A stretch of DNA of 32,000 nt from Pirellula staleyi DSM 6068 (GTDB lineage: Bacteria; Planctomycetota; Planctomycetia; Pirellulales; Pirellulaceae): positions 2,370,001 through 2,402,000 of the forward strand of contig CP001848.1 in NCBI GenBank assembly GCA_000025185.1, in the 5' to 3' direction. The notes under the pieces are model-generated. The model made no database searches, was not told the DNA's origin, and worked only from the letters and a program-made list of their open reading frames with translations. The position numbers and the translations under genes are program-made. Positions 2,124 to 27,382 of this stretch are shown here, in pieces. The first letter of the stretch is position 1. The number at the start of each line of letters is the position of its first letter.

Positions 2124-2244
2124 GCTCGGCCGCGCTCCCATCGGCATTCTCTATATCCCCAGGCAAATCGCTGCGCTCTGCACGCCGTGATGCCGCAGGC
2201 CACTCTTCCACGCTGACAACCTCGCCGCAAGGTGCCTGCTCTCA

Positions 2245-2286
2245 GGTGCCATGCTCCTGTCACGAAGTACGGGTGCGATGCTCCTC
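2245..2286 (+). repeat. family A element, two orphan left arms
   Basis: GGTGCCATGCTCCTG (2245-) and GGGTGCGATGCTCCTC (2271-) match the head plus left stem of family A. Neither has a right arm. Confidence 0.6.
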
Positions 2287-2298
2287 TTTGCCCGGCTC

Positions 2299-2339
2299 GG
2301 GGTGCCATGCTCCTCTCGCGCAGCAGGAGGAGCATGCGA
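2299..2339 (+). repeat. family A-short palindromic element (GGGTGC-CATGCTCCTC-TCGCGCAGCAG-GAGGAGCATG-CGA)
   Basis: 41/41 identical to 2459-2499, and its reverse complement matches 11515-11554. It has a 10-bp perfect stem and an 11-nt loop. Confidence 0.9.
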
Positions 2340-2378
2340 CCTGCCACAGCGGGCTTTCTCGCAGCTAACTTGTCCTCA

Positions 2379-2432
2379 GCATGCTTGTCCTCCTCCGTGC
2401 CCATGGCACTTCGTCGGGCAAGCATGGCACCC
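2379..2432 (-). repeat. family A-long palindromic element (reverse orientation)
   Basis: GCATGCTTGTCC...ACTTCGTCGGGCAAGCATGGCACCC. It is near-identical to 6273-6324 and related to 11439-11490 on the opposite strand. Confidence 0.85.
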
Positions 2433-2458
2433 AGCTAGCAGCTCCTTGGTTCGTCAAA

Positions 2459-2499
2459 GGGGTGCCATGCTCCTCTCGCGCAGCAGGAGGAGCATGCGA
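2459..2499 (+). repeat. family A-short palindromic element
   Basis: Exact copy of 2299-2339, 160 bp downstream. Confidence 0.9.
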
Positions 2500-2570
2500 A
2501 GCTTGGCTCATGCTTCCTATTCTCCGGCTTGTCCTACTACTTCATCGAGCAATCAATGTTAGGCAAAACG

Positions 2571-2604
2571 GGGTGGCACTGCTGGCTTGTCCAGCAGTGT
2601 GAAT
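2571..2604 (+). repeat. family B palindromic element (GGGTGG-CACTGCTGG-CTTGT-CCAGCAGTG-TGAAT)
   Basis: Its reverse complement is 34/34 identical to 5883-5916. It has a 9-bp perfect stem and a 5-nt loop. Confidence 0.9.
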
Positions 2605-2977
2605 CGCAGCTGAGGGTGACATTAACCGATATACGAAGTAATACTTGCTCCCGTGTGCACTTCGTCGAGCTAGCCTCGCCCCAGCATTCGTGTGGCGCGT
2701 GATAGCACCGCTAGCCTCGACCTTCTTCACCCTCCACGTCAGTCGCAAGTCGACGCTAGCAATGCTTTTTCCATGCATTCCCGCTCGCGCCGGAGGCTAA
2801 TCCGAATATCTTGCCAAAATCGATGTCGACACGATTGGCAAAATGAGCATAATCCCACCCCGCCTGCCAAAGTGCACAGCCGTCAAAAGCCGATTCAGTT
2901 GCTAGGACCTAATCGGTGTGTGATGGCTCGCCAAGTTGGCGGCAGATGGACGGATCCAGACCCAAGTCCGCAGCAGC

Positions 2978-3874
2978 ATGATGCACCGCTGTGGCACGCG
3001 AGATTCAATCGTGGCCAACATTCACCCAACGGCTGTAGTCGACAGCAGCGCCGAAATCGGTGCTGACGTGACGATCGGCCCGTTTTGCGTTATCGAGAAA
3101 GGGGTGGTGATTGGCGACGGCTGCACGCTCGAAAGTCGCGTGGTCGTCAAAAGTCGCACTTCTCTCGGACGTCAAAACGAAATCGGCGAAGGGACCGTCC
3201 TCGGCGGCCGCGCCCAACATGTGCACGTCCTCGATCCCGGAGGTGTGCTCATCATCGGCGACAACAACCGGATTCGCGAAAACGCGACGGTTCATCGTGG
3301 CTATGCCAACGATGCCAAAACCACGATCGGCAACAACAATCTCATGATGGTCGGAGTGCACGTCGCTCACGATTGCACCGTCGGCAACAACACCATCATC
3401 GTCAACAACGCCATGCTCGCCGGGCATGTACAGGTCGAAGATCGCGCCTACATCTCCGGTGGCGTTGCGATTCACCAATTCTGCCGCGTCGGAAAATTGG
3501 CCATGGTGGGTGGCCTCGCCAAGGTGACCCAGGATGTGCCCCCGTTCGTGCTCGTCGAAGGTGGTGGCGCTCCCGAAGTTGTCGGACTCAATAAAGTTGG
3601 CATCCGTCGCAATGGCTACACCGCCGACGAAATGCTGCAGCTCAAAACCGCCTATCGTGTGATCTATCGCCAGGGACTCCGCTGGAGCGAAGTGCTCGAG
3701 ATCCTGCAGCGCGATTTCCCGACCGGACCTGCCGCCGCGATGCACGAATTTTTCGTCACCGGCAAACGAGGCTACGTGCAAGAACGACGTATCTCGCGCA
3801 AGGCCACCCTCAAACTCGCCGCTCCACCAGCGGACGAAGATGCCAGCGAATCTCGCGGTCGCGGCGCAGCCTAG
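2978..3874 (+). CDS. lpxA: acyl-ACP--UDP-N-acetylglucosamine O-acyltransferase
   Basis: Left-handed beta-helix hexapeptide repeats (IHPTAVVDSSAEIGADVTIGPFCVIEKGVVIGDGCTL...). LpxA-type C-terminal helical domain (GLNKVGIRRNGYTADEMLQLKTAYRVIYRQGL). Start placed at the first ATG (2978) inside the TTG-initiated track ORF. Confidence 0.9.
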   Translation: MMHRCGTRDSIVANIHPTAVVDSSAEIGADVTIGPFCVIEKGVVIGDGCTLESRVVVKSRTSLGRQNEIGEGTVLGGRAQHVHVLDPGGVLIIGDNNRIRENATVHRGYANDAKTTIGNNNLMMVGVHVAHDCTVGNNTIIVNNAMLAGHVQVEDRAYISGGVAIHQFCRVGKLAMVGGLAKVTQDVPPFVLVEGGGAPEVVGLNKVGIRRNGYTADEMLQLKTAYRVIYRQGLRWSEVLEILQRDFPTGPAAAMHEFFVTGKRGYVQERRISRKATLKLAAPPADEDASESRGRGAA

Positions 3875-3927: not shown

Positions 3928-3988
3928 GTAGGTCAGGTCCCCTCTCAGGGACCTGACGGGAGTTGATCTAGCCATTCTTTCGCCGGGT
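3928..3988 (+). repeat. family C REP-like element: GTAGG + hairpin GTCAGGTCCC/ctctca/GGGACCTGAC + 31-nt tail
   Basis: 58/61 identical to 5236-5296. The stem is a perfect 10 bp. Confidence 0.9.
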
Positions 3989-4043
3989 TCATCTCCCCGC
4001 CATTGAGTCAACATAAACTAGCCGGGTGCCATGCTCCAGAACT

Positions 4044-4083
4044 GGGTGCCATGCTCCTGTCGCGCCAGCAGCAGGAGCATGCT
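4044..4083 (+). repeat. family A-short palindromic element
   Basis: GGGTGCCATGCTCCTGTCGCGCCAGCAGCAGGAGCATGCT. The stem CATGCTCCTG/CAGGAGCATG covaries relative to the other copies. An orphan head, GGGTGCCATGCTCC, precedes it at 4024-4037. Confidence 0.85.
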
Positions 4084-4111
4084 GAAGCCCGCGTGTCAGC
4101 AGGCCCATCTC

Positions 4112-4136
4112 GTAGGTCAGGTACTCCGTACCTGAC
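4112..4136 (+). repeat. family C REP-like element (GTAGG + GTCAGGTAC/tcc/GTACCTGAC)
   Basis: GTAGG head and a 9-bp perfect stem. Same head and first 7 stem bases as 3928/5236, with a different, self-complementary inner stem. Confidence 0.8.
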
Positions 4137-4190
4137 AGCGCACCAACCCGCCATCCACTCACCCCACCTGGCGTCTCTTCGCGCATTTCA

Positions 4191-4636: not shown

Positions 4637-4729
4637 AGTTTGTGTGTGGAGTTGGTGGAGTTCTGTCTATTGGTTCTGTCTCTAAATCGAACCTACGTGA
4701 AACGGATCGTGTTTCGAAAATTCATCGCC

Positions 4730-5239
4730 ATGATTCGACAGCTTCTCGGTCAGCCCCAGACCGAATCAGCAGGCCGATGGGACATCGGCACTGCACACTT
4801 GCAATACGACTCCATCGAGGACTGGATGACTGGCGAAAACGTTCCGCTGGAGTTCATCAAGGAACCCGATCCGATACTTCGTGACAAATACATTCGGCAA
4901 TATGGAGAGCTTCGGCGTCACTTGTACGCAAAACACGTTGGTACGCTGTCACCTGACGTTCAGCAGGCAATCCATCAAGGGTGCCATCCGTCACAAAGCC
5001 ATCGATTCGCCGATGATGCTCAACCATACTGCGAGCTATTGCAGCGTCATTTGGCAACACTTGGCGTGGATATGTCGAACGTACAGTTGGGCTGGTACCA
5101 CATGGATAGGATCGTGCTCACAGTCGAAACGCCCAAGCAGTTTGATGTCGCAAGCTCCCGAGGGCTTCCATGGCTCTTTCAGGGCTTCGAGGTAAAATAC
5201 ATCTCCACTGCAGGCAAAGACGTTGCAGAAGACTTGTAG
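4730..5239 (+). CDS. hypothetical protein (169 aa)
   Basis: First ATG in ORF 4640..5239. Soluble-protein composition and no recognised family. The stop TAG is the TAG of the GTAGG head of element 5236. A paralogous 3' fragment lies at 5374-5466. Confidence 0.5.
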   Translation: MIRQLLGQPQTESAGRWDIGTAHLQYDSIEDWMTGENVPLEFIKEPDPILRDKYIRQYGELRRHLYAKHVGTLSPDVQQAIHQGCHPSQSHRFADDAQPYCELLQRHLATLGVDMSNVQLGWYHMDRIVLTVETPKQFDVASSRGLPWLFQGFEVKYISTAGKDVAEDL

Positions 5240-5296
5240 GTCAGGTCCCCTCTCAGGGACCTGACAGGAGTTGATCTAGCCATTCTCTCACCGGGT
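5236..5296 (+). repeat. family C REP-like element (61-bp form)
   Basis: 58/61 identical to 3928-3988. It is followed by a degenerate family A head, GGGTGCCTGTGCT (5293-). Confidence 0.9.
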
Positions 5297-5348
5297 GCCT
5301 GTGCTCGAAGCAGCTCAACCCAGTTTTGGCCAAACCTCGCATTATCTT

Positions 5349-5369
5349 GTCCGGTGGAACCGGACCTAC
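5349..5369 (-). repeat. family C REP-like element (reverse): GTAGG TCCGGT/tcc/ACCGGA C
   Basis: Its reverse complement has the same loop and length as 22923-22948. Stem changes are compensatory (GCCGGT/ACCGGC becomes TCCGGT/ACCGGA). Confidence 0.8.
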
Positions 5370-5373
5370 CTTC

Positions 5374-5466
5374 TTCGAGATAAAATACAGCTCCACAGAA
5401 GGCAAAGACGTGGCAGAAGCATGCGGTGAACCAGAACTGCCTGTGATCCGAGATTCGAAGTCCTAG
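5374..5466 (+). pseudogene. 3'-terminal remnant of a paralog of the 4730..5239 gene
   Basis: 5373-5421 aligns with 5185-5233 at 42/49 nt. In frame this reads FEIKYSSTEGKDVAE versus FEVKYISTAGKDVAE, then runs to a TAG at 5464-5466. No upstream ORF body exists; the fragment starts right after hairpin 5349-5369. Confidence 0.5.
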
Positions 5467-5540
5467 TTTGGGGCGGCCATTCCATTTTCTGCCGTCGTTA
5501 TGCATTCAGTAATCATCGAGCCTAAGGGAGTACATCCGGT

Positions 5541-5783
5541 ATGAATGGCAAGCAGCCGAATAATCCCTTGCACGGAGTCACGCTTGAGAGTGTCGTCGTG
5601 AGGCTTGTTGATCACTATGGCTGGGAAAATCTTGGCCTTCATATCAATATTAATTGCTTCAAGAATGATCCCTCGGTGAAATCTAGCCTGAAGTTTTTGC
5701 GACGAACACCTTGGGCCCGAGCGCAGGTCGAGAATTTGTACGTCGCTACCTTTCCGCTTCGTGGAAAGTCGGAAAATGCATAG
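5541..5783 (+). CDS. DUF2132 / VF530-family small DNA-binding-like protein
   Basis: [25 protein letters not shown]...[29 protein letters not shown] matches the VF530/DUF2132 signature ([30 protein letters not shown]). An AAGGGAG RBS lies at 5524-5530. GC is lower than the flanks. Confidence 0.8.
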
Positions 5784-5882: not shown

Positions 5883-5916
5883 ATTCACACTGCTGGACAA
5901 GCCAGCAGTGCCACCC
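5883..5916 (-). repeat. family B palindromic element (reverse)
   Basis: Exact reverse complement of 2571-2604 (34/34). Confidence 0.9.
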
Positions 5917-6208: not shown

Positions 6209-6272
6209 TACTTCGTCGAGCAAGTCGTTAGACGCAGAGATAAAACGTTTGCTAAGCGATGCCGCCCGGTTC

Positions 6273-6324: not shown

Positions 6325-6404
6325 AGGTAAAGGACTTCGTCGGGCTAGGATGGGAGCCAGGGAAGTGGGGATGAAGGTTGAGGGGAGAGCAGTGAGGTGG
6401 GATC

Positions 6405-11438: not shown

Positions 11439-11490
11439 GGGTGCCATGCTTGTCCGGTGAAGTGCGCAGCACGGAGCCAGGACAAGCATG
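11439..11490 (+). repeat. family A-long palindromic element
   Basis: GGGTGC-CATGCTTGTCC-(24-nt loop)-GGACAAGCATG with a perfect 11-bp stem, 30 nt after the DUF1501 stop. Confidence 0.85.
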
Positions 11491-11514
11491 AGAATGGCGA
11501 GCGTTTGCTGCACT

Positions 11515-11554
11515 TCGCATGCTCCTCCTGCTGCGCGAGAGGAGCATGGCACCC
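11515..11554 (-). repeat. family A-short palindromic element (reverse)
   Basis: 40/40 match to the reverse complement of 2300-2339. Confidence 0.9.
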
Positions 11555-11657
11555 GGGCTTCAAGGTTGGCATGGCACCCCGACTTCACACTGGCCAGAGG
11601 CCAGTGGCACCCAATGAAATCGTGGCACGCGGCATCACACCGGGAGGACAGTGGCAC
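11547..11657. repeat. array of five TGGCAC(C) motifs, including a family B-like hairpin at 11583-11612
   Basis: TGGCAC at 11547, 11572, 11605, 11623 and 11652. CTTCACACTGGC-cagag-GCCAGTGGCACCC resembles the reverse form of family B. Confidence 0.7.
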
Positions 11658-11929
11658 CTGGAGCACTCTATTCGGGGCCGAGCACCCCGGAAAAACCTTG
11701 CTTGGGCCCGAGCTGGAAGCGCTGGGGCCTACTCTCGCGGCTATCTGCAGGCTCGGGTACGATAAGGGGTCTGTCAGCAAGGCGTGGTGCTGGTCGGGAA
11801 ACCATCGATTCAGGTGGTTTTCGAGCCCGGTTGTCGCACGACCCAGCAGCAGGCCTCTCTCCCGAGTATTCGCCGCTGCCAGGAACTTGCCCGAAGCATG
11901 TGACTTGAAATTCTCTCGCAAGGTGAACG

Positions 11930-22552: not shown

Positions 22553-22573
22553 GTAGGGCCGGTTTCGCCGGCC
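22553..22573 (+). repeat. family C REP-like element (GTAGG GCCGG/tttcg/CCGGC C)
   Basis: GTAGG head plus hairpin, 10 nt after the clpC stop. Confidence 0.8.
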
Positions 22574-22626
22574 TGAAAAACCAAGGTTGATCGCCACGCG
22601 ATCCACTGAATTTTGATAAACCCCAG

Positions 22627-22661
22627 ACCGCCGCGAGCCCTCAAACTCGTGGCGGTTTTTT
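22627..22661 (+). terminator. Rho-independent terminator of clpC
   Basis: ACCGCCGCGAG (22627-37) pairs with CTCGTGGCGGT (22646-56): 11 bp with one G-T pair and an 8-nt loop. A run of six T follows (22656-22661). Confidence 0.7.
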
Positions 22662-22711: not shown

Positions 22712-22737
22712 GTAGTGGCCGGTGCAGCCGGCCCTAC
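22712..22737. repeat. family C REP-like element, symmetric form (GTAGtGGCCGG/tgcag/CCGGCCCTAC)
   Basis: GTAG...CTAC flank a GGCCGG/CCGGCC stem. Confidence 0.8.
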
Positions 22738-22752
22738 AAGCGGCCACTTGCC

Positions 22753-22773
22753 GTAGGGCCGGTTTTACCGGCC
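22753..22773 (+). repeat. family C REP-like element (GTAGG GCCGGT/ttt/ACCGGC C)
   Basis: GTAGG head and a 7-bp stem. Confidence 0.8.
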
Positions 22774-22790: not shown

Positions 22791-22830
22791 TCACATGCTC
22801 TTGCTGCTGCGCGACAAGAGCATGGCACCG
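22791..22830 (-). repeat. family A-short palindromic element (reverse)
   Basis: Its reverse complement is 38/40 identical to 27343-27382. The stem is CATGCTCTTG/CAAGAGCATG and the loop is the conserved TCGCGCAGCAG. Confidence 0.9.
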
Positions 22831-22875
22831 AGGCGCATGGTACCCAGGCATATGGCACCCAGGCGCATTTGTGCC
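22816..22875 (+). repeat. tandem 15-bp repeat x4 derived from the family A head
   Basis: The in-phase units are AAGAGCATGGCACCG, AGGCGCATGGTACCC, AGGCATATGGCACCC and AGGCGCATTTGTGCC. Confidence 0.8.
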
Positions 22876-22922: not shown

Positions 22923-22948
22923 GTAGTGGCCGGTGGAACCGGCCCTAC
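22923..22948. repeat. family C REP-like element, symmetric form (GTAGtGGCCGGT/gga/ACCGGCCCTAC)
   Basis: Same architecture as 22712-22737. Its reverse complement resembles 27322-27344. Confidence 0.8.
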
Positions 22949-27321: not shown

Positions 27322-27344
27322 GTAGGGCCGGTTCCACCTGCCGG
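27322..27344 (+). repeat. family C REP-like element (GTAGG GCCGGTTCCACC(t)GCC)
   Basis: Matches the reverse complement of 22923-22948 with a 1-nt insertion. Overlaps the next element's head by 2 nt. Confidence 0.75.
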
Positions 27345-27382
27345 GTGCCATGCTTTTGTCGCGCAGCAGCAAGAGCATGTGA
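27343..27382 (+). repeat. family A-short palindromic element
   Basis: GGGTGCCATGCTTTTGTCGCGCAGCAGCAAGAGCATGTGA, 38/40 to the reverse complement of 22791-22830. It lies in a 97-bp gap between convergent genes. Confidence 0.9.

Follow-up and report, generated by a model that had tools for sequence, protein, structure and literature searches.

We analysed a dispersed hairpin repeat in a 32,000-nucleotide stretch of Pirellula staleyi DSM 6068, a member of the order Pirellulales (GenBank assembly GCA_000025185.1, contig CP001848.1, positions 2,370,001 to 2,402,000). This whole stretch is referred to as the window and is numbered from its first letter. The segment 2245-2684 and five further intergenic stretches carry a repeat of fixed anatomy, headed by the motif GGGTG(C/G)C. 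These hairpins are very probably elements of the repetitive extragenic palindromic (REP) type, including the REP doublets forming hairpins (REPINs), and belong to a Planctomycetota-wide family whose cognate enzyme is probably a planctomycete subfamily of the REP-associated tyrosine transposases (RAYTs). The dispersed copies are mostly REPIN-like inverted doublets, and in related genomes inverted type-A hairpins of the family surround a RAYT gene encoding about 190 residues, which is the layout of a REPtron.

Anatomy of the hairpin

The type-A unit of 38-39 nt consists of an unpaired 5' foot, GGGTG(C/G), a 10-bp stem, the loop TCGCGC(C)AGCAG and a short tail. The stem opens with CATGCT and closes with AGCATG. 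These six basal pairs and the loop, which reads TCGCG(Y)CAGCAG family-wide and is 11-12 nt long, are almost invariant, while the three to four distal pairs vary with compensation. An earlier reading of the window from its letters alone (the sequence-only reading) had proposed compensated inner stems around a constant loop, and the variants CCTC/GAGG, CCTG/CAGG, CTTG/CAAG and TTTG/CAAG, the last with one T-G pair, bear this out.

The window contains 12 full units. Six are short type-A forms, three are long-loop forms that keep the foot and basal stem and carry a 23-25-nt loop insert, and three are short-stem forms (type B) that share the foot and have a shorter, unrelated stem. Several foot-only fragments are also present, some of them 15-25 nt upstream of a unit (Table 1). 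There are 17 occurrences of the octamer GGGTGSCA where 2.2 would be expected, and none of 100 shuffles contained as many. All 11 positions listed by the sequence-only reading are real family members and were recovered by the covariance model described below. The exact repeats that it reported are likewise present: 2299-2339 equals 2459-2499 (41/41), the reverse complement of 2300-2339 equals 11515-11554 (40/40) and that of 2571-2604 equals 5883-5916 (34/34). In addition, 2460-2535 (76 nt) is 84% complementary to 11479-11554. The segment 2245-2684, described as a mosaic of at least six units resembling a bacterial interspersed mosaic element (BIME), is indeed such a mosaic and holds two full short units, one long, one B and two degenerate units.

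Two proteins encoded in the window share their full sequence with the P. staleyi DSM 6068 proteins ADB16553.1 and ADB16552.1. We based the gene map on Pfam assignments and on gene calls from a metagenome-assembled genome contig that is 98% identical to the window. Every family unit sits outside the confidently assigned genes, in agreement with the claim that all are intergenic. The sole GGGTGCCA within an open reading frame (ORF), at position 4979, is the octamer only (11.8 bits with the covariance model) and is probably a chance occurrence. Of the hairpin clusters, four are flanked by convergent genes and two by tandem genes; no cluster stands in a divergent intergenic region, and single units share the orientation of the nearest gene end. 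No tRNA genes were found in the window.

Covariation of the stem and constancy of the foot and loop

We used 53 distinct copies, just four of them from the window and most from other organisms, to build a covariance model, R1. The model scores the foot strand approximately 40 bits above its complement, and within the window it gives 58-64 bits to short forms, 16-28 bits to long-loop forms and 12-17 bits to B forms. Across the 53 copies, 93.8% of the pairing cells are paired, and double, compensated changes occur at the three distal pairs in 16, 24 and 23 sequences. Values as high as these did not arise in any of 500 shuffles, and slid registers pair at only 18-49%.

The 85 distinct R1 matches show how little the rest of the unit varies: at every position of the foot, the basal six pairs and the loop, a single base accounts for at least 85% of the copies, and at most positions for more than 95%. 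Some of this constancy comes from the search pattern and the model themselves. It does not extend to an optional position in the loop (alignment column 24) or to the loop-closing pair, which is Watson-Crick in about half of the copies and A-G in the remainder. Among mismatches in the stem of the foot strand, G-T outnumbers A-C by 21 to 6, a ratio somewhat inflated since R1 rewards G-U; this excess points to pairing on that particular strand.

From the covarying stem and constant loop, the sequence-only reading had argued for selection on a folded DNA or RNA rather than a decaying mobile-element scar. The folded strand, the covarying stem and the constant loop and foot all stand. The contrast with mobile-element DNA is not supported, since in related genomes the hairpins bracket a RAYT gene, as set out below.

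Distribution beyond P. staleyi

A scan of related genomes had been suggested as a check, and pattern scans show the family in Planctomicrobium and in metagenomes. Scanning one genome per species with the short-form pattern gave 37 matches. Of these, 35 are chance or coding matches that occur singly, many of which fall in one recurring coding stretch (...GAMLLSRDAI...) of Acidimicrobiia, and two are true loci in Planctomicrobium, of the order Planctomycetales. The Planctomicrobium hairpins have the same foot and loop, with distal stems CATG/CATG or CATA/GGTG, and adjoin a B-type unit and a foot-only fragment.

The pattern for the metagenome scan prescribed the foot, the loop and the basal arm on the 5' side and left the 3' arm free. 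It gave 104 matches on 89 contigs or, after removal of a chance coding match (L092; L numbers denote individual contigs and loci), 103 copies on 88 contigs, and the free 3' arm is complementary in nearly all matches other than L092. The gene context of the hairpins at these loci is tandem in 39 cases, convergent in 21 and divergent in five, and single units in tandem contexts are sense in 13 cases versus antisense in four. At L043, L061, L069, L108 and L130, doublets stand immediately upstream of ORFs that resemble Rhs/YD-repeat fragments.

Inverted doublets

Neighbouring units at the metagenome loci are arranged almost exclusively plus then minus, tail to tail with a 20-29-nt spacer (47 pairs, versus one pair in the order minus then plus). 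All 44 distinct doublets measure 98-102 bp and lack a target-site duplication, with a flanking direct repeat of only 0-1 nt. The two halves carry differing stems, and on one side there is usually a further foot-only copy, placed some 30 nt upstream. The metagenome doublets fold into a single long hairpin (z = -7.8). In the window, the doublet at 2300-2432 joins a short to a long unit, and that at 11439-11554 a long to a short unit (fold z = -4.8). In our interpretation, a doublet is a REPtron without its gene. We also considered a pseudoknot in which the loop (CGCGTC) would pair with a downstream GACGCG, and rejected it because GACGCG is the centre or partner arm of the inverted doublet.

RAYT genes bracketed by the hairpins

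We translated the hairpin loci in all six frames, searched the resulting ORFs for HuH...Y motifs and clustered them, which gave three kinds of Y1 gene. The GTAG type is bracketed in L079 and L061 by GTAGG-headed palindromes in canonical REPtron layout. The 171-aa type is bracketed in L054 by inverted hairpins with a GGGTGGC foot, another stem (CCCCGAAAG...) and the tail GGCGCAGCCG, and its homologues in Symmachiella dynata and Blastopirellula marina have flanks of the same kind. The 190-aa type has a type-A unit 20 nt upstream of its start codon in L050, and a fragment of such a gene lies amid A units in L053.

All three Y1 proteins tested pass the NCBIfam model NF047646 (REP_Tyr_transpos) with 110.7-188.5 bits against a cut-off of 80 and are also above the cut-off for Pfam Y1_Tnp (PF01797), while NF033573 (IS200 transposase) gives the RAYT 22-28 bits, under its cut-off of 55. 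The closest solved structure to the 190-aa type is E. coli TnpA-REP (4ER8), with the HuH and tyrosine motifs both aligned. The motifs of the enzyme are PEHVH and YIHANPV (class 2, RAYT-like), and its homologues fill 2,689 database clusters at E <= 1e-10.

Five homologue loci of the 190-aa type were picked by protein and not by hairpin. In L134 (Rubinisphaera sp. JC750) the gene, at 5001-5573, lies between units at 4927-4964 (plus) and 5580-5617 (minus), both scoring 57.6 bits; the first is a type-A unit 36 nt upstream and the second an inverted unit 6 nt past the stop codon, with the feet outward. L137 has the same layout, with units at 3057-3094 (plus, 53.8 bits) and 3716-3753 (minus, 55.5 bits) bracketing the gene. 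In L138 a foot-identical hairpin variant with another loop stands on both sides of the gene, and L135 and L140 have weaker flanking R1 matches. By comparison, no R1 match was found next to the RAYT gene at L132 and L133, two loci of the 171-aa subfamily, which indicates that the pairing of hairpin and 190-aa RAYT is specific. The sequence-only reading had named as its refutation the case that the units are simply the terminal inverted repeats of an annotated insertion sequence (IS) or miniature inverted-repeat transposable element (MITE); in essence the units are terminal inverted repeats of an element, because inverted copies bracket a RAYT gene in related planctomycetes.

Two short motifs recur between hairpin types. 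The heptamer GCGCAGC is found in the type-A loop (e.g. 2316-2326) and in the 3' tail GGCGCAGCCG of the 171-aa-flanking hairpin (L133 9868-9915, L132 9796-9843), and CGACGAAGT is common to the long-loop A forms and a tail variant of the 171-aa-flanking hairpin. Both may be common recognition or cleavage motifs.

Variation between strains

Contigs 98% identical to the window differ from it at the 22.7-kb cluster. One strain contig has an extra 226 bp, made up of a B-type doublet, a duplicated REP and half an A unit, and L039 lacks exactly two 15-nt foot repeats and has a hairpin with a G-T and a loop substitution. These differences look like recombination or slippage within arrays rather than clean transpositions. 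All-against-all megablast of the related contigs gave three indels only, all between strains of the window species, and none of the three is a clean unit-insertion site. At 6219-6252, compared with L038 20013-20491, the strain contig is approximately 440 bp longer, between two direct repeats of about 90 bp; this polymorphism is a deletion between direct repeats or a duplication and is unrelated to the hairpins.

Comparison with known repeat systems

We compared the family to REP/REPIN-RAYT systems, as represented by E. coli TnpA-REP (PDB 4ER8) and the Pseudomonas REPINs. Both are made of short extragenic palindromes whose conserved 5' foot is unpaired, and the likeness extends to inverted doublets as the prevailing dispersed form, a bracketed Y1/HuH RAYT, the absence of target-site duplication, placement downstream of genes and BIME-like arrays. 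The REPtron arrangement itself is seen in related genomes only (L134, L137 and L138, and partially L050, L135 and L140). Unlike the E. coli and Pseudomonas REPs, the foot is GGGTG(C/G)C and not GTAG, the 11-12-nt loop is conserved across two Planctomycetia orders, six basal pairs are invariant, a foot-only copy often lies 15-30 nt upstream and the doublet partners differ in stem.

GTAG- and CGTC-tagged REPs and non-GTAG "TIRtrons" have been catalogued, and Rhodopirellula baltica is named as rich in them, in Di Nocera et al. 2013 (PMC3733652). According to the same text, TIRtrons (TIRYT repeats) resemble the present family in placing RAYT-like genes between non-GTAG inverted repeats, some of which are self-complementary, dispersed and found as dimers or clusters. 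However, the TIR motif reported there, GGGGWSAS, does not fit the GGGTG foot, and it is by this described motif that the two are set apart. Class 3 TnpA-Y1 proteins are enriched in Planctomycetes and have multi-copy flanking hairpins with "atypical secondary structures" in a REPtron-like arrangement (Quentin et al. 2018, PMC6006769). Identity with this class was rejected, because it requires NHVH, YV..EQ and a CnGA foot (PMC6006769), in place of the PEHVH, YIHANPV and GGGTGSC found here.

Enterobacterial BIMEs are likewise intergenic mosaics in which REP units of alternating orientation are mixed with other short motifs, as the A, B and foot-only units are mixed here with GTAGG REPs; the likeness is one of architecture, and the unit sequences differ. 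The subterminal hairpins of IS200/IS605 are also strand-specific, read by a Y1 HuH enzyme, provided with a guide 5' of the stem and free of target-site duplication, but the enzyme here scores as a RAYT and the hairpins far outnumber its gene. No published account of this hairpin family was found in the literature searched by sequence and for P. staleyi repeats. The earlier remark that this is not a recognised described family may be literally right, although the kind of element is well known: the GGGTGCC family is an undescribed flavour of a known kind of repeat and not a new class of structured RNA.

Proposed mechanism

The combination of a covarying stem with a constant foot and loop is what a strand-specific enzyme that reads both structure and sequence in single-stranded DNA would maintain. 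The conserved loop and foot are most likely RAYT recognition features on single-stranded DNA and not features of a new functional RNA. E. coli TnpA-REP and the TnpA enzymes of IS200/IS605, including that of IS608, bind a folded strand, cleave it and carry out strand transfer without target duplication. By analogy, the planctomycete RAYT would bind the hairpin while the foot-carrying strand is single-stranded, reading the foot and here probably the loop too. It would cut near the foot and rejoin the strand, and in this way could copy or move units or doublets in trans with no target duplication. Copies would persist where they are least harmful, downstream of genes, and arrayed copies could expand, contract and recombine to give BIME-like mosaics such as 2245-2684. 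If the units affect the 3' ends of mRNAs at all, this would be a secondary effect.

Several points weigh against this assignment. The canonical GTAG foot is absent, GGGTG(C/G)C standing in its place in 85 distinct copies. Described REP loops are short and variable (PMC3733652), unlike the order-spanning conserved loop of this family. A factor other than the RAYT, or in addition to it, could read the loop. No gene for the ~190-aa RAYT is present in the window or in the strain contigs L038-L042, and none of the 120 best homologues listed for either RAYT query comes from P. staleyi. The excess of G-T over A-C would fit an RNA role equally well, and the 13 to 4 sense lean of the single units in tandem contexts would also be predicted by one. 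Finally, the strain differences are recombination or slippage events and not clean insertions.

In a variant of the RAYT assignment that we consider rather unlikely, the 11-12-nt loop (core GCGCAGC) and 7-nt foot constitute a non-GTAG recognition mode, in which the loop is read base-specifically by the RAYT or a host factor and which has been inherited vertically since before the Pirellulales/Planctomycetales split. If true, this would describe an ancient, possibly domesticated REPIN-RAYT partnership with a host function, such as a role at the 3' ends of mRNAs or in organising the chromosome.

Alternative explanations

The units could instead be primarily a functional RNA (a 3'-UTR stabiliser, a protein-binding RNA or a small RNA) with a loop read by a host factor and with incidental spread. 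The covarying stem, the constant loop, the G-T over A-C excess on one strand, the location mainly downstream of genes, the sense lean of single units and the orientation of the window units with the nearest gene end all agree with such a role, yet each is equally expected of a strand-specific single-stranded DNA enzyme. No Rfam family matched, either at the gathering threshold over the whole window or at a relaxed threshold over 2200-2700, where there was just a chance miRNA match (E = 9). Since most copies are inverted doublets, half of the units are antisense regardless of transcription. The same hairpin also brackets a transposase gene, and units are gained and lost between 98%-identical strains, unlike conserved cis-regulatory RNA. 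The doublet form, the transposase bracketing and the strain turnover together argue against RNA as the primary explanation, which we regard as improbable. As a secondary function, an RNA-level role would fit the position, orientation and G-T excess of the units.

It is more improbable still that the units are kept mainly as double-stranded sites for a host protein, nucleoid-associated or gyrase-like as proposed for the E. coli BIMEs, with the GGGTGCCA foot as the site. Foot-only copies do occur in tandem with periods of 15-25 nt, and the foot is the most conserved part across hairpin types A, B and C. However, a double-stranded site does not need a covarying stem, would not produce the G-T versus A-C strand asymmetry and leaves the bracketing of RAYT genes unexplained. 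Such binding would be compatible with the REP/REPIN assignment and not exclusive of it.

A very small probability attaches to the doublets being MITEs, that is, deletion derivatives of an IS with a DDE transposase whose terminal inverted repeats start with GGGTGCCATGC. Their length of about 100 bp with inverted ends of about 40 bp would suit MITEs, and an IS630-like ORF ends approximately 1 kb from a cluster in L007, but none of the 44 distinct doublets has a target-site duplication, and no unit-bracketed DDE gene was found in about 650 kb of loci, where the only gene found bracketed is the Y1/HuH RAYT. Intrinsic transcription termination, suggested by G+C-rich stems downstream of genes, can practically be dismissed, because no unit is followed 3' by a T-run (the tails are CGA, TGA or CTGA), the units stand in both orientations and in arrays, and P. 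staleyi uses canonical terminators. One of these (CCGCCGCGAGCCCTCAAACTCGTGGCGG then TTTTTT) lies at about 22607-22642, just past clpC and upstream of the repeat cluster.

Implications

What is understood of REP/REPIN-RAYT systems comes almost entirely from Proteobacteria with GTAG REPs. The present family extends the scheme to the Planctomycetota and offers a concrete candidate enzyme-substrate pair, the ~190-aa RAYT and the GGGTGCC hairpin, without opening a new class of biology. In planctomycete genomes the units give rise to spurious short ORFs, interrupt assemblies and produce indels between strains, and the covariance model is therefore useful for annotation.

Repeat units and other repeats in the window

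Table 1 Units of the GGGTG(C/G)C hairpin family in the window, with strand and support.
Feature	Positions	Strand	Support
Degenerate type A; foot and 5' arm, then a second foot-like GGGTGCGATGC	2244-2281	+	R1 16 bits
Type A, short; GGGTGC CATGCTCCTC TCGCGCAGCAG GAGGAGCATG	2300-2337	+	R1 61.4 bits; fold; doublet fold
Type A, long-loop; 25-nt loop insert	2379-2432	-	R1 16 bits (match 2379-2430); fold; doublet fold
Type A, short (2460-2497, same as the 2300 copy), with truncated/degenerate partner	2460-2535	+	R1 61.4 bits
Type B; GGGTGG CACTGCTGG CTTGT CCAGCAGTG TGAAT	2571-2604	+	Reverse complement of 5883-5916; fold; R1 11.9 bits (2571-2600)
Degenerate remnant; foot-proximal part of long type A	2657-2688	-	69% identical to 2406-2437
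Foot-only fragment, 20 nt upstream of next unit	4024-4034	+	R1 10.1 bits
Type A, short; 12-nt loop TCGCGCCAGCAG	4044-4082	+	R1 64.1 bits
Type B	5883-5916	-	Reverse complement of 2571-2604; R1 11.9 bits (5887-5916)
Type A, long-loop	6273-6324	-	R1 28.5 bits; fold
Degenerate copy; foot-proximal part of long unit	6332-6363	-	78% identical to 2406-2437
Type A, long-loop; left half of doublet 11439-11554	11439-11490	+	R1 22.8 bits; fold z = -3.5
Type A, short; right half of doublet 11439-11554	11517-11554	-	R1 61.4 bits
Foot-only fragment	11569-11579	-	Octamer count; R1
Type B; GGGTGC CACTGGCC TCT GGCCAGTG TGAAG	11585-11612	-	R1 17 bits; fold
Foot-only fragment or degenerate B	11648-11659	-	R1 7.4 bits; no stable fold
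Type A, short	22793-22830	-	R1 58.8 bits
Two tandem 15-nt foot-only units; copy number strain-variable	22831-22860	-	Exactly these 30 nt absent from strain contig L039
Type A, short; abuts GTAGG-type REP 27322-27342	27343-27380	+	R1 58.5 bits

A second family, of GTAGG-headed palindromes such as GTAGGGCCGGTTTCGCCGGCC(CTAC) and GTAGGTCAGGTCCCCTCTCAGGGACCTGAC, is interleaved with the GGGTGCC hairpins. Its members lie at 3928-3957, 4111-4137, 5236-5265, 5344-5369, 22553-22573, 22712-22737, 22753-22773, 22923-22948 and 27322-27342, and two of them flank the type-A unit at 4044-4082, downstream of lpxA. The GTAG-type REPtrons of L079 and L061 account for this family; the palindromes are canonical GTAG REPs, separate from the GGGTGCC hairpins. 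A 47-bp direct duplication, 89% identical, comprises 5185-5231 and 5373-5419, at the 3' end of ORF 4640-5239, and the 141-bp segment between the copies is bounded by two inverted GTAGG REPs. The arrangement suggests that a REP doublet was inserted here and the end of the gene was duplicated in the process.

Another GC-rich palindromic unit (GCTGG...CCAGCGCGCGCT) occurs at 1424-1471 and 1487-1534, the two copies being 77% identical. Both lie within ORF 1276-1758, a doubtful ORF with no Pfam match and a low-complexity translation, and the region may be non-coding repeat DNA. A small ORF is also found at 5542-5783 on the plus strand, and its product may be akin to the VF530/DUF2132 family.

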